25,778 bases of DNA, taken from IMG/VR virus record IMGVR_UViG_2718218136_000006. One strand, 5' to 3'. The notes beneath the pieces were generated by a model. The model was not told the origin of the DNA. It saw nothing but the letters and a program-made list of their open reading frames with translations, and searched no databases. This document shows positions 582 to 24,969 of the stretch, one piece after another. This stretch comes from a virus. Taxonomy: Duplodnaviria; Heunggongvirae; Uroviricota; Caudoviricetes. Position numbers and translations under genes: made by a program. Position 1 is the stretch's first letter, and each line of letters opens with the position of its first letter.

Positions 582-2039
582 TTAGGAGCGCCAAAAAAAA
601 CCTGAAAACAATATAATAACAGGATAAATTTCAAGGCGACCAAGAATCATAGCTATGCACATTAAGCATTTTGCAATGTCATTAAGCACTCCGAATGACG
701 ATGCAGTAGCCCCAAAACCTAATCCCATATTATTAATACATGCAGCCACTGTTGCAAATGATGTAAGAAAATCATATCCCATACCATTTAACACCAGTAT
801 AAAAAACACCGTGAAGAGAGTATAAAGAAAAAAGAAACTCCATACAGACCTCATTACACGATCTGTAACTATCTTCCCTCCTACATTTACACTCAACAAC
901 GCTCTGGGATGAGAAAGCTGATTTATCTCGTGTTTGCTTTGTTTGAAAAGTATAAGAAATCGAAGTGACTTAATTCCACCACAAGTTGAACCTATACATC
1001 CCCCAAAGAAACTTGACAACAGCAAAAACACTATCGTGTGCGTGGGCCAACTTGCATAATCCTGCGTAGCTAAACCATTATCAGTGAGCATGGAGCTGGC
1101 AAGAAAAAACGAATGAATAAAACTTCCATGCAAGTCATACATACCTATATGCCAGACCTGGAAAGAGGTAACAATGATCACCCCTAAGGCTATTAACAGA
1201 AAGAAACGAAGTTCAATATCTCTGATTAAAGGTTTTATCGTTTTTCTGCTAATAACAATATACCAAAGAGTAAAGTTGAAAGCCGATAGCAGGGAAAAAG
1301 CACCAGCCACCAGCTCAACCAAATAGTTATTAAAATATCCGATACTCTCGCTATGAGTTGAGAAACCACCAAGCGAAACTGTGGAAATCCCGTGACAAAT
1401 AGCATCAAACAAAGGCATTCCTGCAAGTCTATAACAGACAATACAAGCAATACCTAATAAAGAATAAGTTATCCACAGTGTCCGTGACGTATCGGCCAGG
1501 CGGGGAGTGAGTTTGTCATCCTTAAATGGCCCCGGCATTTCTGACTGATAAAGCTTTGCACCACCAATACCCAATAATGGCAATACTGCAACCGCCAGAA
1601 CAATAACTCCTAAACCACCTATAAAATTTAACTGTGACCGATAGTACAAATATGCCCGAGGTAATGAACTAACATCATCAATTACAGTTGCTCCTGTTGT
1701 TGTTATTCCAGAAACCCCTTCAAACAGAGCATCAATGAACGTTAAATTAAGTTCTGAGTCAATCCATAAAGGGAATGCACTAATAACAGAAAACAAAATC
1801 CAAAACATTACAATTATAATAAACCCATCACGGGTACGTAATTGAATGCCAGATTTCTTAGTTGTATACCACGCTCCGCCACCAATGCAAAAAAATATAA
1901 CGAAAGTTATAAAGAAAACGAACAGGCTTTTTTCTTTATAAAACAATGCTACAACCATTGGTGGCAACATTGAAAGACTATAGAGCCAAACCAGGAACCC
2001 ACACATATGAGTAACAACTCTTACATGAGATGTATTCAT
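582..2039 (-). CDS. trkG: TrkG potassium uptake membrane protein, 485 aa (prophage moron)
   Basis: ORF track 582..2057; start re-picked at ATG 2037-2039 (MNTSHVRV...); polytopic TrkH/TrkG-type sequence recalled as Rac-encoded TrkG. Confidence 0.9.
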   Translation of the reverse strand: MNTSHVRVVTHMCGFLVWLYSLSMLPPMVVALFYKEKSLFVFFITFVIFFCIGGGAWYTTKKSGIQLRTRDGFIIIVMFWILFSVISAFPLWIDSELNLTFIDALFEGVSGITTTGATVIDDVSSLPRAYLYYRSQLNFIGGLGVIVLAVAVLPLLGIGGAKLYQSEMPGPFKDDKLTPRLADTSRTLWITYSLLGIACIVCYRLAGMPLFDAICHGISTVSLGGFSTHSESIGYFNNYLVELVAGAFSLLSAFNFTLWYIVISRKTIKPLIRDIELRFFLLIALGVIIVTSFQVWHIGMYDLHGSFIHSFFLASSMLTDNGLATQDYASWPTHTIVFLLLSSFFGGCIGSTCGGIKSLRFLILFKQSKHEINQLSHPRALLSVNVGGKIVTDRVMRSVWSFFFLYTLFTVFFILVLNGMGYDFLTSFATVAACINNMGLGFGATASSFGVLNDIAKCLMCIAMILGRLEIYPVIILFSGFFWRS

Positions 2040-2176
2040 ATCTAAATATTCTTTCAATTATAACCACCTTGCTGCAATATTATGATTATACTGTATAAAA
2101 TTTAACTCCTCTTAGATCTTACTTCACTGTTCCTTATGAAACAATCATCAAAATGAATCATATTGTAGTTAAGATT

Positions 2177-2641
2177 TTACTTTAAACACTGTTCGGTTAT
2201 GTATTGCTGAGCACCTTCAAGTTGGGCCTGCATCATTACCAGTCGTTCCCGGAGGGTGAAATAATCCCGTTCAGCGGTGTCTGCCAGTCTGGGGGAGACT
2301 GCATTATCCACGCTGGAGGTGGCGGTGGCTTCACGCACTGACTGACAGACTGCTTTGATGCGCAACCGACGACGACCAGCGGCAACATCATCACGCAGAG
2401 CATCATTTTCAGCTTTCGCATCAGCTAACTCCTTCAGGTATTTTGCATCGAGTGCAGCAACATCACGCTGGCGTATCTGCATGTCAGTAATGATTGCGGT
2501 CGCCTGGTTGAGTTTTTCCGTCACATTATCGCGTTGCGCTTTGTAGGTAATGGCATTATCACGGTAATGATTAACAGCCCATGACAGGCAGACGATGATG
2601 CAGATAACCAGAGCATAAATAATCACGGCAACTCTGCTCAC
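2177..2641 (-). CDS. Rz-type i-spanin (inner-membrane spanin subunit)
   Basis: ORF track 2177..2656; N-terminal TM segment ([18 protein letters not shown]) then coiled-coil region, lambda Rz-like; likely GTG start 2639-2641 overlapping endolysin stop (GTGA). Confidence 0.8.
2236..2421 (-). CDS. Rz1-type o-spanin lipoprotein, embedded in +1 frame inside Rz
   Basis: 61-aa ORF with lipobox LVVVGC and proline-rich PPPPP stretch, fully nested in Rz, the classic Rz/Rz1 architecture. Confidence 0.8.
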
Positions 2642-3171
2642 TGCTCTATCCCCCAACAGGCTAATGCGCTCTCCTGATCACGACGAATAACCTGACCGTA
2701 ACAGTTATTTGAACGAAGGCGGCAATCGCGCCCCCTGTCCTTAATCCACCAGCGAATCGCCTCGCAGGCACCTTTACGATCACCTGCATTCAGCCGCTTA
2801 TAAAATGTCGACGGAAAACACTTAGCGGGGCCAATGTTATAGGGACAAAATGACGCGATACCCGCTTTTTGTGGTTCGGTCAGTGTTACTTTAATATTGC
2901 GATCCACCCATGCCAGCGCCTTATCACGCTCAATGGCATTAACCTGATCGCATTTTTCCTTCGTCAGTGTCATGCCCGGAATAACAGGTTTACCATCTAC
3001 TATCGTGGCACCGCGACAGATGGTCCATATGCCGGAACCATCGCGGTATGCCGTAGTGTGGTTACCCTCTTTTTCATCCAGAAACTGGTCAAGTATCTCA
3101 GGAGCAGATGCGCCTGCTCCAATCAGCGCCAGAACGGCCGCTGACAGGCCGTATTTGATTTTTGCGTTCAT
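2638..3171 (-). CDS. SAR endolysin (phage lysozyme, signal-anchor-release type), 177 aa
   Basis: ATG 3169-3171; N-terminal Gly/Ala-rich weakly hydrophobic segment ([17 protein letters not shown]) followed by E-x8-D-x5-T lysozyme catalytic spacing ([16 protein letters not shown]). Confidence 0.85.
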
Positions 3172-3276
3172 GGATATTTATCAGGATTTATCGGTTTCTG
3201 AACCCTGGATATGTTTATCTGCCCCGGCCTGTTGAATCAGGCGGGGAAAAGGTAAATACAATCAAGAGGATTATTT

Positions 3277-3549
3277 ATGGACAATAACACCATTTCTCTA
3301 CAGGAGTTGCTCGACTGCATTTCCAGGCTTCGGGATGATGTAAATGCCCTCACTGTTGCATTTTCATATCTGGCCTTATCAATTCCCAGAGAACAAATGC
3401 AACCAACACTGGCATCGCTCCTGCTTGAATCACGCAACCCCAAATGGTCCCAGGAACAACAAAATTCTTTTAAGTGGCTGGCGACATTACTGGAAGAAAA
3501 ATATGCTGGTAAAATTACCATTTCGGTGGAGTCTTCAGAAAATCAGTAA
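3277..3549 (+). CDS. hypothetical 90-aa protein, opposite strand to the lysis cassette
   Basis: ATG at 3277 preceded by AAGAGGA at about -9; ORF overlaps the 3' end of the YdfR-like gene convergently by 35 bp. No family recognised. Confidence 0.35.
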   Translation: MDNNTISLQELLDCISRLRDDVNALTVAFSYLALSIPREQMQPTLASLLLESRNPKWSQEQQNSFKWLATLLEEKYAGKITISVESSENQ

Positions 3550-3859
3550 TTCTTCCTGGTAGCTTTCCTTTGTAGGTTATCCACACATTCTGCGCCTCTA
3601 AAATTACGGGGCGCTTTTCCGGCGACTGCTCATCCCCTTCACATAACCCGGCAGCAACATCCAGGAAGACCTGTCTGATGCTCCTTCTGGCTGCAGCCTC
3701 ATAAAACTCCAGCGCAGCACCTTCAACACGGTCCAGCGAGATGTCCAGGTCAAAAATTTCACCGTCAAAGCGTTTTTTGTCTTGTAATGCTACAGTTACC
3801 GCAACTTTATTCTCAAAATTGCGGATCCCTTTCACAATCAGTTCATAGTCTTGGGTCAT
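3515..3859 (-). CDS. YdfR-like (DUF1327-type) prophage protein, 114 aa, between holin and endolysin
   Basis: ATG 3857-3859 with strong GAGGAGAG Shine-Dalgarno; N-terminus MTQDYELIVKGIRNFENKV... recalled as the YdfR family found at the same position in other lambdoid prophages. Confidence 0.55.
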   Translation of the reverse strand: MTQDYELIVKGIRNFENKVAVTVALQDKKRFDGEIFDLDISLDRVEGAALEFYEAAARRSIRQVFLDVAAGLCEGDEQSPEKRPVILEAQNVWITYKGKLPGRITDFLKTPPKW

Positions 3860-3863
3860 TATA

Positions 3864-4079
3864 TTACTCTCCTCTCGCAGCCTTTCTTCTGTCTTCTCTG
3901 ATTTTGAAGTACAGATTTGTCAGATAAGTCAAAAAGCCCAGAACCAGACTACCCAGCACACCGATTGCAGCCCACTGTGACGGAGTTACTCTATCGAGCA
4001 ACTGTAAAAACCAGTAGCCAGCACTGCCTGCGGAGGTGCCATAGGCGACACCCGTTGTTAACTTATCCATGGATTTCAT
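3864..4079 (-). CDS. pinholin (phage 21 S-type holin), 71 aa, dual-start MKSM
   Basis: ORF track 3864..4172 trimmed to ATG 4077-4079 (second Met at 4068-4070) behind GAGGTG; sequence ...[17 protein letters not shown]...[19 protein letters not shown] matches recalled S21 pinholin. Confidence 0.85.
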
Positions 4080-4467
4080 AACCCCCACCTCGCAGATGCG
4101 GGCGCTGTGTAATGGAAACAAAAAATGGCCACCAGCGGCCCGTAAAAAACACCCCGTCAAAAGCACCGGCATCCGCAGATGCCCTTTGCGTGGCGTTATT
4201 TGATGCGCGCCAGATGTGGCGCAAAGAAATGAAATAAGCCTTATCGAAAATTAAGGTTAATTTGATGATTTAAACCACTTCTGAAGCTTAGTAGTATGAA
4301 CATGTCCCCAGAAGGGGCCAATACTTATTATTCTTCATGGACTTTGTCCCGCGGTCTTAATCCGACGACCGCGCTACTTTTCACCCTCTCGCAAATTGCT
4401 ATCTAAAGGACGTTGTCCCACGAGTATTCCTGGATGCTCGTGTCTTTTTTTGTCCTGAGAAAGGAAT

Positions 4468-4490
4468 AAAAAAACCGCCAGATATGGCGG
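4468..4490 (-). terminator. candidate intrinsic terminator (minus strand) between tRNAs and holin
   Basis: Stem CCGCCA(4475-4480)/TGGCGG(4485-4490), 4-nt loop, followed on minus strand by a run of 7 T (4468-4474). Confidence 0.35.
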
Positions 4491-4856
4491 TTGGTCAATG
4501 CAAGGGATGAATTTTTTAATTGTTATTAAACCGAGGCGTCGGGTGCCTCCCGAAGTATTCCGTGCTGTATGGATACTGTGGTTTCCCGCTAAACCGACTC
4601 TTTAAACCACCCTCGCACTGAGGAGCACCTCTGTGGTGCGATTTACAACACCAGAATGATGCATCACCGACCCTGCCAGGAAATACAAAATCTCCACCGA
4701 TAATGCACCATTCTGCTGCCGTAAAAAAATCAGCACTGAGGCTACACCCGGCCTCAAATCATAGCCAGAGAACAGAATGCTTTTTCAAAACAACCTGCTC
4801 CCACGTAATAAAAAAATACGCCAGTGCCGTAATACAATAAGGCTTGTTTCAAATGC

Positions 4857-4931
<75 letters not shown>

Positions 4932-4934
4932 ATA

Positions 4935-5010
<76 letters not shown>

Positions 5011-5123
5011 ATTGGTTCTTCAGGGGAGCGATATCACCGATCAAAGAAGAGTTCCCCCTCAGAACCGTTTTCGATGATACGATTTAATATTCCAATCGCA
5101 ACAACAGTTTGCGTCAAGTTATG

Positions 5124-5204
5124 TAAATTTATTTATATGTTTTTATTTTATGTGAATAATTCACTTTCACTTAAAATATATACAACAACATATAAATAAA
5201 TTTA
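5124..5204. repeat. 17-bp perfect inverted repeat (TAAATTTATTTATATGT at 5124-5140; reverse complement at 5188-5204), 47-bp spacer
   Basis: Directly read; AT-rich intergenic DNA between the Q-proximal terminator and tRNA-Thr. Confidence 0.6.
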
Positions 5205-5249
5205 TTTTGAAGGCGATGATTAAATGTCGTTTCTGATATCACACCACAG

Positions 5250-5278
5250 AAACAACAAAACCCGCTCGATGGCGGGTT
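5250..5278 (-). terminator. intrinsic terminator downstream of the Q-like gene (tR'-like position)
   Basis: Stem AACCCGC(5259-5265)/GCGGGTT(5272-5278), loop TCGATG; on minus strand followed by TTGTTGTTTC. Confidence 0.5.
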
Positions 5279-5363
5279 CTATTAAAGTTTAATTGCGCTT
5301 GATTCGCCTCGCGATACAGCTTTGCGAAGCGTAGCAAAATTAAAGCAGTTTATGCGTAAAAAA

Positions 5364-5906
5364 TCAAGCCGTTTTTTGAGCGAATGATTCTCGCATGGGA
5401 ATGTATAGCGCATACTCAGCAACGGCCAACCAATTAGCAATTCGCTTTTCGCATGTGCTAAAACACCACTCTGGGTGTGCATCATTTAGCAATTCAGCCA
5501 TTTTGCGTTTGGTCATCCCCCGCCCCTCATACCGTTGCCGAAGGACGCTAATCAATCCTGGATGCTCTGCCAGCACCTCACTTATGACCCGATCAATACA
5601 TAACGCCTCTGCATCAGTACAATGTGCCAGCCAGCTCTTTTGCTTACCGTTAATCATATCCCGCAAAAAAGCCTCAAGTTCAGACTTGTTCAGACCTGCT
5701 TTTTTCATCCTCCGGAGCGCCTCGTTAATTGCCGTTTTTGTCAGCTTTTTAGAGGCCAACAACTGGTTGAACATATTCCCCGTCTTACCGCCGCCAATAT
5801 ACGACCAGCGCCCCCACATGCGCAGTTTTCCCTGAATCCAGACACTTTCCAGCGTGGTGAGACGAAGGTGTTCCCCGCTTTTGCCTATATTTGTTGGGTA
5901 AATCAT
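5364..5906 (-). CDS. putative late-gene antiterminator Q-like protein, about 180 aa
   Basis: ORF track 5364..6026 trimmed to ATG 5904-5906, which overlaps the upstream gene stop (ATGA); W-G-x-W motif (MWGRW) near N-terminus as in Q-family proteins; position immediately upstream of terminator, tRNAs and S-R-Rz. Confidence 0.5.
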   Translation of the reverse strand: MIYPTNIGKSGEHLRLTTLESVWIQGKLRMWGRWSYIGGGKTGNMFNQLLASKKLTKTAINEALRRMKKAGLNKSELEAFLRDMINGKQKSWLAHCTDAEALCIDRVISEVLAEHPGLISVLRQRYEGRGMTKRKMAELLNDAHPEWCFSTCEKRIANWLAVAEYALYIPMRESFAQKTA

Positions 5907-6193
5907 AAATAACCTTCCTTTCTCCAGATTTCTTGCGTGCGAAAAACACCTTCTGCATGCATCAGGCGTAATTCTTCTTTGGTGTAATCGCTTGTTTTTA
6001 CCCGCCAGTCGATTAGATCGTGGCATGAGCTACAGGCTATCGCCGCCTGCATATCGTGTGGTTTTGTCGCTGTTCCGCACGTCCCCGCCAGCCTGTAATG
6101 CGCCAGCACAGAGGTTTCGGGATTGTGATTGCAGTAGCCAGGGATTCTGATCTGGCACATCTGGCCTTTAGCCGCTTTACGTAAATTCACCAT
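5903..6193 (-). CDS. YbcO-like (DUF1364) nin-region protein, 96 aa
   Basis: Pattern LRKAAKG..CQIRIPGYCNHNPETSVLAH recalled from DLP12 YbcO; start ATG 6191-6193 overlaps upstream stop (TAATG). Confidence 0.6.
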   Translation of the reverse strand: MVNLRKAAKGQMCQIRIPGYCNHNPETSVLAHYRLAGTCGTATKPHDMQAAIACSSCHDLIDWRVKTSDYTKEELRLMHAEGVFRTQEIWRKEGYL

Positions 6194-6792
6194 TACGCAA
6201 ACTCCAGTAGTTGTGCGGCCACATTTTCAATTTCCTCCTGAGAGGAGAATTTACGGAACAGAATCCAGTTCCACAGCACATTCAGTACAGATTTATAAAC
6301 CTGCTGAAACTCGACTTCGTCCATATTCGCAAACGCGATGGATTTCGCCCGACGCCCACGGCTACCATCAGGATAAAAATGCTCTGTGTAAAATCCGGCC
6401 TGAATGGTTACCCACTCGCGGAAAGCCTCAAACGACTTTAGCAATGCCGTATCCCGGGTTCTGCGTGTCGCAACGGTATTCAGATATTGCTCTGCGGCAC
6501 CACTCAGGGCTGGAGTATGTTCCCGACCTACTGATTCGCACAGGTAATCAACGAAGCCTGATACCAGTTCTCGTTCTCGAGGCGTGATCGCCCCACCGAT
6601 CGGAGTCCAGTAATCGAATCCCAGTTGCAGGAGTTTGAAAAAACGCTTGTGGAATGCATAGTTACGCACACGCTTAAAGTCTGCGTGTATCCACTCGCCT
6701 ATTTTGATTTGATGCAGAAAATCGCAACTCTCCGGCGTCGCCGGGAGAAGTAAACCAGAAGAAGTTTGTTTGACCAGTTGTATATGCGCCAT
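6193..6792 (-). CDS. hypothetical nin-region protein, 199 aa
   Basis: ATG 6790-6792 with GGAG upstream; long ORF, co-oriented and coupled to the downstream gene. Family not recognised with confidence. Confidence 0.55.
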   Translation of the reverse strand: MAHIQLVKQTSSGLLLPATPESCDFLHQIKIGEWIHADFKRVRNYAFHKRFFKLLQLGFDYWTPIGGAITPRERELVSGFVDYLCESVGREHTPALSGAAEQYLNTVATRRTRDTALLKSFEAFREWVTIQAGFYTEHFYPDGSRGRRAKSIAFANMDEVEFQQVYKSVLNVLWNWILFRKFSSQEEIENVAAQLLEFA

Positions 6793-8087: not shown

Positions 8088-9416
8088 CTGAGAGATCCCC
8101 TCATAATTTCCCCAAAGCGTAACCATGTGTGAATAAATTTTGAGCTAGTAGGGTTGCAGCCACGAGTAAGTCTTCCCTTGTTATTGTGTAGCCAGAATGC
8201 CGCAAAACTTCCATGCCTAAGCGAACTGTTGAGAGTACGTTTCGATTTCTGACTGTGTTAGCCTGGAAGTGCTTGTCCCAACCTTGTTTCTGAGCATGAA
8301 CGCCCGCAAGCCAACATGTTAGTTGAAGCATCAGGGCGATTAGCAGCATGATATCAAAACGCTCTGAGCTGCTCGTTCGGCTATGGCGTAGGCCTAGTCC
8401 GTAGGCAGGACTTTTCAAGTCTCGGAAGGTTTCTTCAATCTGCATTCGCTTCGAATAGATATTAACAAGTTGTTTGGGTGTTCGAATTTCAACAGGTAAG
8501 TTAGTTGCTAGAACCCATGGCTCCTTTGCCGACGCTGAGTAGATTTTAGGTGACGGGTGGTGACAATGAGTCCGTGTCGAGCGCTGATTTTTTCGGCCTT
8601 TAGAGCGAGATTTATACAATAGAATTTGGCATGAGATTGGATTGCTTTTAGTCAGCCTCTTATAGCCTAAAGTCTTTGAGTGACTAGATGACATATCATG
8701 TAAGTTGCTGATAGGTTTCCAGTTTTCCGCTCCTAGGTCTGCATATTGTACTTTTCCTCTTACTCGACTTAACCAGTACCAACCCAGCTTCTCAACGGAT
8801 TTATACCATGGCACTTTAAAGCCAGCATCACTGACAATGAGCGGTGTGGTGTTACTCGGTAGAATGCTCGCAAGGTCGGCTAGAAATTGGTCATGAGCTT
8901 TCTTTGAACATTGCTCTGAAAGCGGGAACGCTTTCTCATAAAGAGTAACAGAACGACCGTGTAGTGCGACTGAAGCTCGCAATACCATAAGTCGTTTTTG
9001 CTCACGAATATCAGACCAGTCAACAAGTACAATGGGCATCGTATTGCCCGAACAGATAAAGCTAGCATGCCAACGGTATACAGCGAGTCGCTCTTTGTGG
9101 AGGTGACGATTACCTAACAATCGGTCGATTCGTTTGATGTTATGTTTTGTTCTCGCTTTGGTTGGCAGGTTACGGCCAAGTTCGGTAAGAGTGAGAGTTT
9201 TACAGTCAAGTAATGCGTGGCAAGCCAACGTTAAGCTGTTGAGTCGTTTTAAGTGTAATTCGGGGCAGAATTGGTAAAGAGAGTCGTGTAAAATATCGAG
9301 TTCGCACATCTTGTTGTCTGATTATTGATTTTTCGCGAAACCATTTGATCATATGACAAGATGTGTATCTACCTTAACTTAATGATTTTGATAAAAATCA
9401 TTAGGGGATTCATCAG
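8088..9416 (-). mobile_element. IS10 copy 1 (1329 bp), flanked by 9-bp direct duplication CGCTTTGCA (8079-8087 and 9417-9425)
   Basis: Ends CTGAGAGATCCCCTCATAATTTCCCC (inside end) and ...TCATTAGGGGATTCATCAG (outside end) recalled as IS10 termini; exact 9-bp flanking repeat read from sequence. Confidence 0.95.
8101..9309 (-). CDS. IS10 transposase, 402 aa
   Basis: ORF track; protein MCELDILHDSLYQFCPELHLKRLNSL... recalled as the IS10/Tn10 transposase. Confidence 0.95.
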   Translation of the reverse strand: MCELDILHDSLYQFCPELHLKRLNSLTLACHALLDCKTLTLTELGRNLPTKARTKHNIKRIDRLLGNRHLHKERLAVYRWHASFICSGNTMPIVLVDWSDIREQKRLMVLRASVALHGRSVTLYEKAFPLSEQCSKKAHDQFLADLASILPSNTTPLIVSDAGFKVPWYKSVEKLGWYWLSRVRGKVQYADLGAENWKPISNLHDMSSSHSKTLGYKRLTKSNPISCQILLYKSRSKGRKNQRSTRTHCHHPSPKIYSASAKEPWVLATNLPVEIRTPKQLVNIYSKRMQIEETFRDLKSPAYGLGLRHSRTSSSERFDIMLLIALMLQLTCWLAGVHAQKQGWDKHFQANTVRNRNVLSTVRLGMEVLRHSGYTITREDLLVAATLLAQNLFTHGYALGKL

Positions 9417-11284
9417 CGCTTTGCATCAGACAGAAGGTCATCCCAAGTTAATGTATACATTTCTTGTTCTCTCAATGTTTTCAGTTTCATATTTAACGTT
9501 GCATTTCTCTTTAAAAAATCATCAGCAACTAGATAACCGGAAACTCGCTTGAATGGACTTCCTGTTGCAGAGTCTAAATAAACTCTGAAAGTATTAACAT
9601 ACTCCTCAAAGCGATTGATGTGATCTTTATCTATTTTCAGCCCTGGCCTCATGAATTCAAGTACAAGCAAATGTTCACCACTTGAAAGAACTAAGTCAAC
9701 CCTTCCTTTAAAGCTTGGATCGTGTTCAATGTCTGATTCTTTTGCTGCTTCTCTAGCGATATGCTGGACATTTTTCTCAATAGCATAAGTCTCCCATTTT
9801 GGAGCTATCAGCCAAGGATTCTTCGCAATATAGTCTCGAACAGCATTTTCTAATTCTTTAGTGCGTATTCTAGTCTCAAGACCACTTATAGTATCAAGCT
9901 TAGCTTTAACTGATTCTGCTGTGTGTAAAGCCTGAATTGTATTTGCTTCGATCAATATCTCAAGCAATTTCGTTTCATCCATATCAGGAACGGAAGCAAC
10001 GCTTCTTATAAGCTCTTTTAGACGCCCTCCCTCCCATGCAGTGAGGATAGAGTTGCCTATATGCCTAAATTGCTCTGCACCGATTTGTTGGATTGATGCA
10101 ATTCGTTTCAAAGCCATTATAACCGTTTTTTTCTCTACACCTAGTTTATCTAGCCTACTTCTGAAATCATCAATTTTACTTTCAATCAGTTTGGTTTTTT
10201 CATCTGCCCGCCGATCTTTCCAGATTTTTAATAATTCGCGAACACGTTTCTGTCCCCACTCTTCTAATTTGGCAAGGTGGTGACTACTCCAATTCAATCT
10301 TTGTCGTTCAGTAGAAATCACATCATCATTAAACTCATCCAAATAATCAGCAATTACAGCCCCTGTCATATATTCAGGACCATTTTGACTTGGCAACCCT
10401 CCAGTCAAGTTAAACATAAACGGCCTTTGTGCTAATTTTTTGTGAGCGTAAATCGAGATACCTTGCAACTCATCATCCTTGATTGTTTCTTTTAAGAAAA
10501 ACACTCTCCATTTTATCTCATAACCATCAACGATTTCTTTTCCATACCCCAAACTGTCAATCTCCGTAAGAGAATCAGGTTTTTCATCTACAGTATAATC
10601 TTTTGGAAAACTATATTCTGCAGTGGCAAGAAAATTTTCGACTGGCATGGGGGTATTATTAATACGAACTAAAAATTCATCGCCGCCAGAATTGATCGCA
10701 AACCTTCTCGCCATAGATGTAGCAAAAGAAGACTCATTTAACAATCTATTTATTTTCAATGACTTAAGTGTTACTGTTGTTCCATGATTTTCTTTTTCTA
10801 ATTCTGAAGGGCCTGTGCGGAAGGTCACATCAATAGCCATGCTTTCAGTTTTAACGTAGTCATCTGACGATCTAATCTTATTTATATCCAAAGTAAAACT
10901 AGTTTTTTCACCTGTTTCTTGGCTAGTAGTACAAATTTCTATAATCTCAGCAATACCAAAACCAGCAAACTTTCCGATACCTTTTCTTCCCATTAAGTCT
11001 CGATTGAATAATTTCGACTTCGCTACAGGATTATCTTTCCTTTTATCAAAACCAACCGTAAGAAATTTCTTTTGACATTCTTCAAATGTCATTCCAATAC
11101 CATTGTCTTTTATAACAATAGTTCTATTTTCATGCGTGGGTAGTGTAATATTAACTTCGGTTGCATCCGCGTCCCAAGCATTAGAAACCATTTCAGCTAT
11201 TGCTGCTGTTGGACTTTGATACATTTGAATACCTAAATGATCAATTATCCTACCATGAAAATTTAGAAATAGTTTATTATCCAT
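9413..11284 (-). CDS. MORC/MutL-like GHKL ATPase (HATPase_c-type N-terminus) with large C-terminal region; truncated to 623 aa by IS10, original about 660 aa
   Basis: Bergerat-fold motifs read directly: EMVSNAWDA (N box), IKDNGIGM (G1), GRKGIGKFAGFG (G2). ATG 11282-11284 overlaps MTase stop by 8 nt. Stop codon 9413-9415 lies inside the IS10 end. Confidence 0.75.
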   Translation of the reverse strand: MDNKLFLNFHGRIIDHLGIQMYQSPTAAIAEMVSNAWDADATEVNITLPTHENRTIVIKDNGIGMTFEECQKKFLTVGFDKRKDNPVAKSKLFNRDLMGRKGIGKFAGFGIAEIIEICTTSQETGEKTSFTLDINKIRSSDDYVKTESMAIDVTFRTGPSELEKENHGTTVTLKSLKINRLLNESSFATSMARRFAINSGGDEFLVRINNTPMPVENFLATAEYSFPKDYTVDEKPDSLTEIDSLGYGKEIVDGYEIKWRVFFLKETIKDDELQGISIYAHKKLAQRPFMFNLTGGLPSQNGPEYMTGAVIADYLDEFNDDVISTERQRLNWSSHHLAKLEEWGQKRVRELLKIWKDRRADEKTKLIESKIDDFRSRLDKLGVEKKTVIMALKRIASIQQIGAEQFRHIGNSILTAWEGGRLKELIRSVASVPDMDETKLLEILIEANTIQALHTAESVKAKLDTISGLETRIRTKELENAVRDYIAKNPWLIAPKWETYAIEKNVQHIAREAAKESDIEHDPSFKGRVDLVLSSGEHLLVLEFMRPGLKIDKDHINRFEEYVNTFRVYLDSATGSPFKRVSGYLVADDFLKRNATLNMKLKTLREQEMYTLTWDDLLSDAKR

Positions 11285-12325
11285 AATCCGCCTCGTTTTT
11301 AGTTATATGTTCTTTGATAAGTTCAGCATGATGCTTAATGAATTCAGGGGGCAATGCATTCCCTATCATCAAAGCAGCCTTGTCTTTACCAAATTGAATA
11401 GGAAAATAGTAATCACTCGGAAAAGTTTGTAATAATGCAGCCTCTCGAAGAGTTATTGCTCTATCTTGTTCAGGATGTAAAAAACGACCTTTTGAAGGAT
11501 TAGTACATCCACTCGTAATAGTTGGAGCTACATCATCCCACCTCATACGACCGTAAACATCGCGAAAACCATTTGGATATCGTTTATGACATGGCAGCCA
11601 ATACTCGTAAGGAAGTTGAGAGCGGCTTCCCCCATCCTTAGGAATAAGACTTATAATTTTTTTAACCTTCTCAGTTCTTCTTTCTAATATATTGTGCAGC
11701 GGATCATTGCTATTTTCAGGTCGAGCCAAATGGCCTATTGCATCGCGCACAGTTATTAAATTACTATTTTTTTGAGCACGAGTAAGCTCTCCGTATCGCG
11801 AAGCAAGTAGTACCATGCGCTTACGTCTTTGTGGCACACCAAATTTACTAGCATCTTCAATTAAAACTGAATTATCATCGATATGATAACCCAATTTCTT
11901 AAGCTCCGAAGTAAACATGTTTATTCGTTCGTCAAATGCCAAAGCTGGTACATTTTCAACCATTACAACTTTTGGAAAAAAGACTTTAACAAAATCTAAA
12001 AAATTAAAAATAAGTTCATTTCTCTCATCAAAGACAGCTACTGTTTTATTTTTTGTTCTTAACGAAGAAAATCCTTGACATGGTGGACAACCTGCCAACA
12101 AATCCAGTTCACCTTGCTGAATTTTTAATTGTTTCATTAATTCATCTGGTGATATATTTTTATATCCCCATTTATTAAGTTAACATCCGGATGGTTGATT
12201 CTATAGGTTTCAGATACAATAGCTTCTTTTTCGATTGCTGATATGACATCAAAGCCAGCCATTTTTAGACCAACTGTCAAACCACCAGCGCCACAAAAAA
12301 GATCAATTGCTTTCATTTTATGCAT
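11277..12325 (-). pseudogene. Dcm-family DNA (cytosine-5) methyltransferase, split by a -1 frameshift in an A5 run (T5 on plus strand at 12157-12161)
   Basis: 62-aa ORF carries motif I (DLFCGAGG) and GDIK; 286-aa ORF carries motif IV (PCQGFS), ENV, and C-terminal GNALPP. Adding one A restores a continuous GDIKNISPDEL...ELDLLAGCPPCQ reading. Confidence 0.8.
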
Positions 12326-19053: not shown

Positions 19054-21654
19054 ATGAGCACAAAACCACTCTTCCTGTTACGGAAAGCGAAAAAATCATC
19101 CGGTGAACCTGACGTCGTCCTGTGGGCAAGCAACGATTTTGAATCGACCTGTGCCACTCTGGACTACCTGATCGTTAAGTCAGGTAAAAAACTGAGCAGC
19201 TATTTTAAAGCTGTTGCCACGAATTTTCCTGTCGTTAATGACCTGCCCGCTGAAGGTGAGATCGATTTTACCTGGAGTGAACGCTATCAACTCAGCAAAG
19301 ACTCCATGACATGGGAACTAAAACCGGGAGCAGCACCAGACAACGCTCACTATCAAGGCAATACCAACGTCAACGGCGAAGACATGACTGAGATTGAGGA
19401 GAATATGCTACTCCCAATTTCTGGCCAGGAACTGCCCATTCGTTGGCTTGCTCAACACGGCAGCGAAAAACCGGTAACGCACGTTTCACGCGACGGACTC
19501 CAGGCATTACACATTGCTCGGGCTGAAGAACTACCGGCTGTTACTGCCCTGGCTGTTTCCCACAAAACCAGCCTGCTCGACCCGCTGGAAATTCGCGAAC
19601 TCCACAAACTGGTTCGTGACACTGACAAAGTTTTCCCTAATCCTGGTAATTCAAACCTGGGACTGATAACTGCTTTTTTCGAAGCATACCTGAACGCTGA
19701 CTACACCGATCGAGGACTGCTGACAAAAGAGTGGATGAAGGGTAATCGTGTTTCACACATCACTCGCACGGCTTCCGGTGCTAATGCTGGCGGCGGAAAC
19801 CTCACCGATCGCGGCGAAGGTTTCGTACACGATCTGACGTCACTGGCGCGCGACGTAGCCACTGGCGTACTGGCCCGTTCAATGGATCTGGACATCTATA
19901 ACCTTCATCCGGCACACGCTAAACGCATTGAGGAAATTATCGCTGAAAATAAACCGCCCTTTTCTGTTTTCCGCGACAAATTCATCACCATGCCTGGCGG
20001 GCTGGATTATTCCCGCGCCATCGTGGTTGCGTCCGTAAAAGAAGCACCAATTGGGATCGAGGTCATCCCCGCGCACGTCACTGAATATCTGAACAAAGTA
20101 CTGACTGAAACCGATCATGCCAACCCTGATCCGGAAATCGTGGATATTGCCTGCGGTCGCTCCTCTGCCCCGATGCCGCAGCGAGTAACAGAAGAAGGAA
20201 AACAGGATGATGAAGAAAAACCGCAACCATCTGGAACAACGGCAGTTGAACAGGGAGAGGCTGAAACAATGGAACAGGACGCAACTGAACATCATCAGGA
20301 CACGCAGCCGCTGGATGCTCAGTCACAGGTAAATTCTGTTGATGCGAAATATCAGGAACTGCGGGCAGAACTCCATGAAGCCCGGAAAAACATTCCATCA
20401 AAAAATCCTGTCGATGCCGATAAATTGCTTGCTGCATCACGTGGTGAATTTGTTGACGGAATTAGCGACCCGAACGATCCGAAATGGGTAAAGGGGATCC
20501 AGACTCGCGATTGTGTGTACCAGAACCAGCCAGAAACGGAAAAAACCAGCCCGGATATGAATCAACCTGAGCCAGTAGTGCAACAGGAACCGGAAATAGC
20601 CTGCAATGCCTGCGGCCAGACTGGCGGGGATAACTGCCCTGACTGTGGTGCGGTGATGGGCGACGCAACATACCAGGAAACATTCGATGAAGAGAGTCAG
20701 GTTGAAGCTAAGGAAAATGATCCGGAGGAAATGGAAGGCGCTGAACATCCGCACAATGAGAATGCTGGCAGCGATCCGCATCGCGATTGCAGTGATGAAA
20801 CTGGCGAAGTCGCAGATCCCGTAATCGTAGAAGACATAGAGCCAGGTATTTATTACGGAATTTCGAATGAGAATTACCACGCGGGTCCCGGTATCAGTAA
20901 GTCTCAGCTCGATGACATTGCTGATACTCCGGCACTATATTTGTGGCGTAAAAATGCCCCCGTGGACACCACAAAGACAAAAACGCTCGATTTAGGAACT
21001 GCTTTCCACTGCCGGGTACTTGAACAGGAAGAATTCAGTAACCGCTTTATCGTAGCACCTGAATTTAACCGCCGTACAAACGCCGGAAAAGAAGAAGAGA
21101 AAGCGTTTCTGATGGAATGCGCAAGCACAGGAAAAACGGTTATCACTGCGGAAGAAGGCCGGAAAATTGAACTCATGTATCAAAGCGTTATGGCTTTGCC
21201 GCTGGGGCAATGGCTTGTTGAAAGCGCCGGACACGCTGAATCATCAATTTACTGGGAAGATCCTGAAACAGGAATTTTGTGTCGGTGCCGTCCGGACAAA
21301 ATTATCCCTGAATTTCACTGGATCATGGACGTGAAAACTACGGCGGATATTCAACGATTCAAAACCGCTTATTACGACTACCGCTATCACGTTCAGGATG
21401 CATTCTACAGTGACGGTTATGAAGCACAGTTTGGAGTGCAGCCAACTTTCGTTTTTCTGGTTGCCAGCACAACTATTGAATGCGGACGTTATCCGGTTGA
21501 AATTTTCATGATGGGCGAAGAAGCAAAACTGGCAGGTCAACAGGAATATCACCGCAATCTGCGAACCCTGTCTGACTGCCTGAATACCGATGAATGGCCA
21601 GCTATTAAGACATTATCACTGCCCCGCTGGGCTAAGGAATATGCAAATGACTAA
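19054..21654 (+). CDS. recE: RecE exonuclease VIII, 866 aa, intact
   Basis: ORF track; length and sequence recalled as Rac RecE; 3' end overlaps recT start. Confidence 0.95.
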
Positions 21655-23640: not shown

Positions 23641-24969
23641 CTGAGAGATCCCCTCATAATTTCCCCAAAGCGTAACCATGTGTGAATAAATTTTGAGCTA
23701 GTAGGGTTGCAGCCACGAGTAAGTCTTCCCTTGTTATTGTGTAGCCAGAATGCCGCAAAACTTCCATGCCTAAGCGAACTGTTGAGAGTACGTTTCGATT
23801 TCTGACTGTGTTAGCCTGGAAGTGCTTGTCCCAACCTTGTTTCTGAGCATGAACGCCCGCAAGCCAACATGTTAGTTGAAGCATCAGGGCGATTAGCAGC
23901 ATGATATCAAAACGCTCTGAGCTGCTCGTTCGGCTATGGCGTAGGCCTAGTCCGTAGGCAGGACTTTTCAAGTCTCGGAAGGTTTCTTCAATCTGCATTC
24001 GCTTCGAATAGATATTAACAAGTTGTTTGGGTGTTCGAATTTCAACAGGTAAGTTAGTTGCTAGAACCCATGGCTCCTTTGCCGACGCTGAGTAGATTTT
24101 AGGTGACGGGTGGTGACAATGAGTCCGTGTCGAGCGCTGATTTTTTCGGCCTTTAGAGCGAGATTTATACAATAGAATTTGGCATGAGATTGGATTGCTT
24201 TTAGTCAGCCTCTTATAGCCTAAAGTCTTTGAGTGACTAGATGACATATCATGTAAGTTGCTGATAGGTTTCCAGTTTTCCGCTCCTAGGTCTGCATATT
24301 GTACTTTTCCTCTTACTCGACTTAACCAGTACCAACCCAGCTTCTCAACGGATTTATACCATGGCACTTTAAAGCCAGCATCACTGACAATGAGCGGTGT
24401 GGTGTTACTCGGTAGAATGCTCGCAAGGTCGGCTAGAAATTGGTCATGAGCTTTCTTTGAACATTGCTCTGAAAGCGGGAACGCTTTCTCATAAAGAGTA
24501 ACAGAACGACCGTGTAGTGCGACTGAAGCTCGCAATACCATAAGTCGTTTTTGCTCACGAATATCAGACCAGTCAACAAGTACAATGGGCATCGTATTGC
24601 CCGAACAGATAAAGCTAGCATGCCAACGGTATACAGCGAGTCGCTCTTTGTGGAGGTGACGATTACCTAACAATCGGTCGATTCGTTTGATGTTATGTTT
24701 TGTTCTCGCTTTGGTTGGCAGGTTACGGCCAAGTTCGGTAAGAGTGAGAGTTTTACAGTCAAGTAATGCGTGGCAAGCCAACGTTAAGCTGTTGAGTCGT
24801 TTTAAGTGTAATTCGGGGCAGAATTGGTAAAGAGAGTCGTGTAAAATATCGAGTTCGCACATCTTGTTGTCTGATTATTGATTTTTCGCGAAACCATTTG
24901 ATCATATGACAAGATGTGTATCTACCTTAACTTAATGATTTTGATAAAAATCATTAGGGGATTCATCAG
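23641..24969 (-). mobile_element. IS10 copy 2 (1329 bp), flanked by 9-bp direct duplication CGCTTTACC (23632-23640 and 24970-24978)
   Basis: Same termini as copy 1; 9-bp flanking repeat read from sequence; same orientation as copy 1. Confidence 0.95.
23654..24862 (-). CDS. IS10 transposase, 402 aa
   Basis: ORF track; protein identical to the copy-1 transposase. Confidence 0.95.
   Translation of the reverse strand: MCELDILHDSLYQFCPELHLKRLNSLTLACHALLDCKTLTLTELGRNLPTKARTKHNIKRIDRLLGNRHLHKERLAVYRWHASFICSGNTMPIVLVDWSDIREQKRLMVLRASVALHGRSVTLYEKAFPLSEQCSKKAHDQFLADLASILPSNTTPLIVSDAGFKVPWYKSVEKLGWYWLSRVRGKVQYADLGAENWKPISNLHDMSSSHSKTLGYKRLTKSNPISCQILLYKSRSKGRKNQRSTRTHCHHPSPKIYSASAKEPWVLATNLPVEIRTPKQLVNIYSKRMQIEETFRDLKSPAYGLGLRHSRTSSSERFDIMLLIALMLQLTCWLAGVHAQKQGWDKHFQANTVRNRNVLSTVRLGMEVLRHSGYTITREDLLVAATLLAQNLFTHGYALGKL

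Follow-up and report, generated by a model that had tools for sequence, protein, structure and literature searches.

The DNA analysed here (the window) is one strand of 25,778 nucleotides (nt) assigned to a virus of the Caudoviricetes (Duplodnaviria; Heunggongvirae; Uroviricota; IMG/VR record IMGVR_UViG_2718218136_000006), and the subject of the analysis is a phage lysis cassette at positions 2177 to 4079. This span had initially been annotated as a complete set of pinholin, signal-anchor-release (SAR) endolysin and Rz/Rz1 spanin genes with two additional genes between holin and endolysin. Six open reading frames (ORFs) were found there, both in the ORF list and in the sequence, and its limits are exact, with position 2177 ending the stop codon of Rz and position 4079 opening the first ATG of the holin gene. 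The features of the cassette are as follows (aa, amino acids):

2177–2641, minus strand: Rz i-spanin, 154 aa, GTG start as called by PGAP (PF03245, E = 1.3e-48).
2236–2421, minus strand: Rz1 o-spanin lipoprotein, 61 aa, nested in Rz in a different frame (PF06085, E = 1.1e-18).
2638–3171, minus strand: endolysin of the GH24 (T4-lysozyme) type with an N-terminal SAR-like signal-anchor, 177 aa (PF00959, E = 9e-24).
3212–3258: imperfect inverted repeat or hairpin, recognised by sequence and folding, with its core at 3222–3247 (CCCCGGCCTG-TTGAAT-CAGGCGGGG).
3277–3549, plus strand: ORF90, 90 aa (phrog_2411, E = 4.9e-57, positions 1–90 of 90).
3515–3859, minus strand: YdfR-family (DUF1327) gene, 114 aa (PF07041, E = 9.5e-44).
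3864–4079, minus strand: class II holin/antiholin gene of the phage 21 (S21) type, 71 aa (PF04971, E = 4e-34), with two products, the presumed antiholin of 71 aa from M1 (4079) and the presumed pinholin of 68 aa from M4 (4070).

Pfam assigns the five ORFs on the minus strand to Phage_holin_2_1 (P21 holin S), DUF1327, Phage_lysozyme, Phage_lysis (Rz) and Rz1 with E-values from 1e-18 to 1e-48, in agreement with PHROGs, and since all scores are far beyond the curated cut-offs these matches are not due to chance. The profile search of the lysis proteins by which the initial annotation was to be checked therefore returned every expected family. In particular, the holin scores 116.8 bits against Phage_holin_2_1, for which the curated cut-off is 26 bits, and is 93% identical to EssD from the DLP12 prophage of Escherichia coli K-12, 90% to EssQ from Qin and 76% to the S protein of an Stx2a phage. 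Its dual start M1-K2-S3-M4, by which the antiholin would gain an additional positive charge at its N-terminus, is kept in the sequence as well as in the alignment of homologues, where M1, M4, the basic C-terminus and all three residues of the G40xxxS44xxxG48 face of the second transmembrane domain (TMD2) are invariant. Kyte-Doolittle hydropathy exceeds 1.4 only at residues ~35–56, i.e. in the strongly hydrophobic TMD2, and TMD1 (residues 8–27) is rich in G, A, S and T, weakly hydrophobic and thus SAR-like; as far as can be predicted from the sequence, this two-TMD profile is the expected pinholin arrangement. The dual-start motif and the features of pinholins have been reviewed (PMC9636201), and by these features the protein can be assigned to the phage-21-type pinholins and would be predicted to form small heptameric channels, which depolarise the membrane and do not let a cytoplasmic endolysin out.

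The endolysin matches PF00959 with 84.6 bits and has both the GH24 fold and the catalytic triad, as E35/D44/T50 (Glu-8aa-Asp-5aa-Thr) align with the structures of R21 (3hde) and RrrD (4zpu). None of the three triad residues varies in an alignment in which RrrD is represented, all eight cysteines are invariant across the homologues from functional phages, and the protein is 90–93% identical to the endolysins of Stx2_EH2201, mEp460, Chlobot and Qin. In its N-terminal stretch of 18 residues, 11 are G, A or S, and the hydropathy of this stretch is moderate. The N-terminus further has a proline after the sequence ASA, a residue that is unfavourable for cleavage by signal peptidase. The leader of the gene, CCTGATAAATATCC-ATG, has no Shine-Dalgarno (SD) sequence. 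It was considered as a sign of decay and rejected, being common to an Stx2 phage, mEp460 and Qin and hence the normal state in functional phages. Across about 60–80 related loci the ratio of nonsynonymous to synonymous polymorphism (pN/pS) is 0.11 for the endolysin and likewise for the holin, a sign of purifying selection.

Rz matches PF03245 with 164.8 bits and has the TMD, the periplasmic coiled-coil domain and the conserved cysteines of an i-spanin; it shares 84% of its residues with lambda Rz, C99 and C152 among them, and has kept the N-terminal TMD. A mechanical ORF call from an upstream TTG would extend the gene to 2656 (159 codons), but PGAP starts it at a GTG overlapping the endolysin stop codon (GTGA). 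Again a reading as decay was rejected, because the GTGA junction is usual in functional phages and the majority state among the homologues, mEp460 included. Rz1 (PF06085, 67.1 bits) lies wholly inside Rz as in the embedded spanin architecture, is 95% identical to lambda Rz1 and carries the lipobox LVVVGC, C29 and a proline-rich stretch. The pinholin, the endolysin and the nested spanin pair, all of which had been judged to look intact, are thus borne out in their motifs and by their identity to homologues. The disabling substitutions in catalytic or topological residues that would have contradicted this were looked for in the alignment of homologues, and no rare substitution was found at any such position.

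With respect to the two genes between holin and endolysin, both are real, but only one of them is an addition to this type of cassette. The product of the YdfR-like gene matches PF07041 over its full length (148 bits, profile positions 1–92 of 93), and its residues 1–74 are 84% identical to YdfR of Qin while the C-terminal tail differs, in line with a family in which the N-terminal ~74 residues are conserved, the C-terminal tails vary and lengths range from 103 to 183 aa. Since ydfR is also found between S and R in Qin, Stx2_EH2201, mEp460 and Chlobot, it is part of the standard layout and not an extra gene, and YdfR is a regular cytoplasmic passenger of the cassette type. Its pN/pS of 0.45 likewise points to purifying selection; PADLOC and NCBIfam gave no match. 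YdfR of Qin binds the catalytic (N-terminal) half of RNase E, for which residues 1–72 have been reported, and co-purifies with RNA (PMC13232886). By analogy, RNA handling late in infection would be the best lead to the function of the protein in the window.

From its gene content and sequence the window can be identified as a copy of Rac, a defective prophage of the lambdoid family in E. coli. The genes ttcA/intR-xisR-ralR/RalA-recT-recE-kilR-sieB are found at one end and trkG-ynaK at the opposite end, the antitoxin small RNA RalA is detected by Rfam with 220 bits, and there is a Pfam match to TrkH. The annotated locus of EC12 matches with 99.96–100% identity and has the gene order ttcA-intR-xisR-ralR-recT-recE-kilR-sieB-ydaF-...-ydaT-ydaV-..., continued by NinB-like-YbcO-like-DUF1133-tRNA-Thr-tRNA-Gly-holin-YdfR-hypothetical-lysozyme-lysis protein-trkG-ynaK'. 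The EC12 locus ends with a truncated ynaK adjoining a fragment of sitA, and no head or tail genes are annotated in it. The window departs from this locus by two IS10 insertions, both of which have duplicated 9 bp of their target; besides these there are seven point or indel differences, none of them inside the cassette. Both IS10 copies (8088–9416 and 23641–24969) encode the DDE transposase and contain RNA-OUT (9302–9371 and 24855–24924; two copies also by Rfam), and in the same orientation they flank about 14 kb of the prophage. Because the second copy splits the Rac integrase gene intR, the prophage can probably no longer leave its site.

The presence of a whole lysis cassette distinguishes the window from Rac of K-12 MG1655, where only the rzpR pseudogene and rzoR are left beside trkG. 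Positions 2100–2614 of the window are orthologous to this stub, with 93% identity and the same place beside trkG. Therefore, the window represents the undeleted state, from which K-12 has lost everything from ydaW to the first codons of Rz, including Q, the tRNA genes, the holin gene, ydfR, ORF90 and the endolysin gene, all of which are present in the window. In E. coli B REL606 the block holin-YdfR-ORF90-lysozyme-Rz-trkG is found as well, but a separate deletion has removed all DNA from ydaG to the start of the holin gene together with the late promoter region. Other Rac variants have an RrrD-type or another GH24 lysozyme beside Rz-trkG, or no endolysin at all. Given that EC12, REL606 and these further variants carry such genes, intact lysis genes in Rac are common and mosaic. 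Moreover, the 2.2-kb cassette region is 100% identical to at least 10 E. coli chromosomes in RefSeq, and the cassette type, its mechanism, the exact sequence and the gene calls are already contained in public annotated genomes. The initial annotation had taken the intactness to exceed what a heavily decayed prophage would retain. The cassette is indeed intact, but this is unremarkable as EC12 and REL606 carry the same one, and it is only modestly significant because Rac decays by the deletion of blocks and other strains keep the same block, even without a promoter.

Upstream of the holin gene, the window contains the following features of a late-control region:

4168–4757, minus strand: untranslated leader with three terminator-like hairpins (4757–4736, 4492–4473 and 4183–4168; terminator scan).
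4857–5010, minus strand: tRNA-Thr(TGT) and tRNA-Gly(TCC), between Q and holin (ARAGORN and Rfam RF00005).
5253–5284, minus strand: tR'-like intrinsic terminator, a 13-bp stem with a T-run ~80 nt 3' of Q (terminator scan).
5364–5906, minus strand: Q-like late antiterminator (DUF1133; PF06576, E = 4.8e-107 over positions 1–175 of 176; phrog_753, 'anti-termination protein Q-like', E = 4e-79).

The Q-like gene is full length, PGAP calling 180 aa in the identical sequence of EC12, and the two tRNA genes, the only matches of a permissive Rfam search of positions 2000–5500, occupy the place where Stx phages carry tRNA genes. Some 770 nt (4080–4856) have no called gene and include convergent terminators at 4473–4492 (minus strand) and 4419–4442 (plus strand). 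As judged from the layout, from which the promoter is likewise deduced, the order Q-tR'-tRNAs-holin corresponds to the usual pR'-tR' arrangement, in which the lysis genes would be silent unless Q acts.

On top of the gene identities, motifs, conservation and genomic setting described so far, homology to phage 21 and lambda allows expression, lysis activity and each step of a mechanism to be predicted. Upon derepression of the prophage, the Q-like antiterminator would let late transcription pass tR', the two tRNA genes and the three further terminators into S-ydfR-R-Rz/Rz1. The 68-aa pinholin and the 71-aa antiholin would then build up in the inner membrane, while the endolysin would be exported via Sec and held tethered and inactive by its SAR domain. 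At the trigger time the small channels formed by the pinholin should collapse the proton motive force, upon which the endolysin would be released, refold and cut the peptidoglycan, and the Rz/Rz1 spanin complex would finally fuse the inner and outer membranes. The mechanism of pinholin/SAR systems in general is reviewed in PMC9636201. The genuine gene ORF90 is carried by a separate insertion of ~300 bp; on the opposite strand it encodes a small acidic protein, predicted to be helical and cytoplasmic, and is most probably an accessory gene of the moron type.

In contrast to ydfR, ORF90 is an addition to the layout. The gap between ydfR and the endolysin gene is 343 nt in the window versus 0–55 nt in Qin, an Stx2 phage and mEp460, and compared with these three the extra ~300 nt (about 3205–3512) form an insertion that consists of ORF90 and the imperfect hairpin. 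The latter marks one edge of the insertion, in the stretch from the endolysin start to ORF90; its stem is predicted in the folds of both strands (z about -2.3 to -2.6), and the position 3226/3243, a G.G in the window, is an A-T pair in divergent homologues. As a terminator, the hairpin core at 3222–3247 was rejected, there being no U-tract on either strand. ORF90 itself has an SD sequence (AAGAGGA) 7 nt 5' of its ATG, and with its last 35 nt it extends into the 3' end of ydfR on the opposite strand. One promoter candidate, TTGAAT-19 nt-TACAAT, was discarded since its spacing is bad, it runs into the SD sequence and it is not conserved. No plus-strand terminator was found flanking the gene, and none is predicted before 4419–4442.

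ORF90 is opposed on the minus strand by a shadow ORF of 94 codons (3237–3521), whose ATG, 4 nt before the stop codon of ydfR, overlaps that stop and so mimics translational coupling. Here pN/pS does not help to find the coding strand, because the wobble positions of the two frames coincide and both values are low (0.34 for ORF90 and 0.22 for the shadow ORF). This test was therefore replaced by the integrity of the frames in six divergent homologues with 73–84% protein identity: ORF90 retains its ATG, length and stop in all six, whereas the shadow ORF has one or two stops in five and has lost its ATG in two. In addition, profile searches retrieve relatives of ~90 aa with roughly 30–60% identity from Citrobacter, Serratia, Sodalis and other Enterobacterales, which share the motif ELLxxIxxLRxxVNxLxxAFxYLxF...E....TI..L.FES. 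As ORF90 stays open in divergent homologues where the shadow ORF breaks, and as relatives can be found by profile searches, it is a real gene of a real family. The protein is acidic and predicted to be cytoplasmic, and its AlphaFold2 model consists of four helices (pLDDT 71). Pfam, NCBIfam and PADLOC gave no informative match, and searches by protein accession or PHROG identifier found no literature on it.

The Citrobacter relative is encoded in a prophage, on the opposite strand directly 5' of a holin of an unrelated type, and a relative in another lambdoid prophage stands beside terminase genes (probably lysis or terminase). In many Serratia species, however, the relative is chromosomal and syntenic in rne-ABM-pyrC-dinI-[X]-bssS-solA, and relatives in Sodalis and in an environmental enterobacterium also have chromosomal contexts. 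In the Serratia loci L098–L100 the gene (6001–6282) lies between bssS and a dinI that carries a LexA box, a few kb from rne. By eye no LexA box was seen 5' of ORF90 or of this relative, in contrast to the obvious one of the Serratia dinI. In E. coli K-12, dinI and bssS are presumably adjacent and without such a relative. ORF90 is present in 1135 of 5426 complete E. coli genomes (21%), REL606/BL21, ATCC 8739 and EC958 being carriers, and in three of 50,697 phage records, and frameshifted or truncated copies are fairly common. In some prophages (loci L086/L087, 3001–3664) ORF90 lies between the holin and the 177-aa endolysin with a gap of 175 nt in place of a called ydfR; ORF90 and ydfR are therefore separable. 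In these loci the endolysin is followed by a ParDE-like pair and an antirepressor. Silent diversity (pS) is 0.06–0.09 for ydfR and ORF90 versus 0.43 for the holin and 0.22 for the endolysin, i.e. four to seven times lower, which suggests either a recently spread mosaic segment or an extra constraint on silent sites.

Taken together, these data favour a late operon for lysis that a lambdoid prophage of the Rac family has kept in the undeleted state and that carries the moron-type insertion with ORF90, a reading to which we assign a probability of roughly 85%. Several points weigh against this interpretation. The SAR behaviour of the 177-aa endolysin subtype is predicted from its sequence; the minority residues I57, T68, T96 and A116 of the endolysin are lineage-specific; fold searches gave no functional clue for ORF90 and weak ones at most for YdfR; and no credible sigma-70 promoter was found for ORF90, so that the moron model has to do without one. 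Furthermore, selection for lysis is not guaranteed in a prophage that is defective by its lack of head and tail genes and its split intR, and intact reading frames are no proof of use because REL606 keeps its ORFs without the regulatory region. The cassette might accordingly be an inert relic, never expressed or subtly inactivated, with frames that are intact since Rac loses large blocks and not single points. The missing morphogenesis genes, the integrase disrupted by IS10, the promoterless ORFs of REL606, the four minority substitutions and the four minus-strand terminator-like hairpins from Q to the holin gene (tR' and three others) would all fit a relic. However, several different sequences besides this one have the minority residues, none of which is catalytic; functional homologues agree with the cassette at every catalytic, topological, lipobox and cysteine position; the Q-like gene is full length; and Chlobot, a sequenced phage isolate, has an identical layout. 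Together these points make a relic unlikely. The opposite assumption, that selection keeps the cassette as a domesticated host function, be it altruistic or abortive lysis or the release of cell contents, could draw on the intact module from Q to Rz/Rz1 in a prophage without structural genes and on the pN/pS of about 0.11 for holin and endolysin. Yet this ratio pools active lambdoid phages recombining with Rac and is therefore no measure of selection inside Rac, and the differing or missing endolysins of the Rac variants as well as the lost promoter of REL606 indicate mosaic turnover and not conservation, so that domestication appears considerably less probable still than a relic.

As to the insertion, the notion that ORF90 is not a gene at all but a chance ORF, the shadow of its 94-codon counterpart, or non-coding spacer is already largely refuted and can be considered highly improbable. 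The equally low pN/pS of the minus-strand ORF at shared wobble positions, its apparent coupling to ydfR, the lack of a Pfam or NCBIfam family and of a detectable promoter for ORF90, and its broken variants are compatible with it; but it is at odds with the frame that is kept in all divergent homologues, where the minus-strand ORF is broken in five of six, with relatives of ~90 aa sharing a conserved motif in unrelated contexts without ydfR, and with the coherent four-helix model. A real ORF90 could instead be tied to lysis, either by convergent transcription across ydfR and the holin gene that silences leaky holin expression in the lysogen or by an acidic protein that binds the basic C-terminus of the pinholin, or YdfR, and thereby tunes the timing of lysis. 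In phage settings it is always found on the opposite strand, inside a group of lysis or late genes or next to one: in E. coli in the gap between holin/ydfR and endolysin, in Citrobacter next to a holin of another type and in the third prophage next to probable lysis or terminase genes; and without a predicted plus-strand terminator before 4419–4442 a transcript of it would extend in antisense over ydfR and S. On the other hand, no lysis genes are near the chromosomal relatives in Serratia, Sodalis and the environmental bacterium, the same cassette does without ORF90 in Stx2 phages, mEp460 and Qin, the gene is found in just three phage records, and the region where the late operon is entered is a generic hot spot for the insertion of morons such as bor, lom and stx. 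A tie to lysis is therefore rather improbable, and it is slightly more doubtful still that the ORF90 family as a whole represents an unrecognised regulator of lysis or late operons that restrains holin expression or pinholin triggering in lysogens, for which antisense transcription and/or the small acidic four-helix protein may be the route. If this were true, the Serratia copy between dinI and bssS would be a domesticated version in the stress response. Most likely, ORF90 is a moron-type accessory gene that is not specific for lysis.

Apart from the cassette, this Rac copy contains a type II restriction-modification-like pair at 9413–12137 (minus strand) that is absent from Rac of K-12, comprising a HATPase_c_3 protein (PADLOC REase_II, E = 1e-52) and a C-5 cytosine methyltransferase. 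Both genes look inactivated in the window. The first IS10 copy cuts off the 3' end of the HATPase-type, REase-like gene with a loss of about 37 C-terminal codons, and the methyltransferase gene, lacking 1 nt at 12157 in comparison with EC12, encodes 286 instead of 346 aa. The recE gene (19054–21654, plus strand) is intact with 866 codons, whereas the annotation of the near-identical EC12 copy gives a pseudogene interrupted by an internal stop; differences between these copies are at 19274 and 19976.

The undeleted state of the window implies that the rzpR/rzoR stub of K-12 is the descendant of a complete pinholin/SAR-endolysin/spanin operon which other Rac variants have kept. In strains with the variant described here, a prophage unable to excise or to make particles would contain a Q-controlled lysis module that may be lethal. 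Both the YdfR family and ORF90, a widespread small gene with carriers in about one fifth of the complete E. coli genomes, have their place inside lysis cassettes.

Amongst known systems, phage 21 and the essD-rrrD-rzpD/rzoD cassette of DLP12 share with the window the holin family and its dual start (93% identity to EssD) as well as the combination of a pinholin, a GH24 endolysin of the putative SAR type with an E-D-T triad and embedded Rz/Rz1 genes. However, the endolysin of the window is of a different subtype (177 aa, eight cysteines) that is 39% identical to RrrD/R21, and DLP12 has neither ydfR nor ORF90 between S and R. In gene order the window agrees with the Stx2/933W-type and mEp460-type phages and the essQ-ydfR-rrrQ-rzpQ cassette of Qin, which have the same succession of holin, YdfR and 177-aa endolysin and the same endolysin leader, with identities of 90–93% for the endolysin and 61–76% for YdfR. 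All of these lack the ~300-bp insertion with ORF90 (about 3205–3512); in addition, Qin has a DUF2514-type RzpQ where the window has a lambda-type Rz, and the Stx2 cassette has additional ORFs between R and Rz. The insertion itself resembles the bor-type morons of lambda, as ORF90 is likewise small, inserted in opposite orientation in the late/lysis region and absent from otherwise identical cassettes, but the likeness is one of layout only, since Bor is an outer-membrane lipoprotein with a known promoter while ORF90 encodes a predicted cytoplasmic helical protein and no promoter or terminator was found for it. By its sequence, the cassette as a whole thus belongs to the phage-21/Stx-phage class of pinholin, SAR endolysin and embedded Rz/Rz1, and the corresponding lytic activity is predicted for it.

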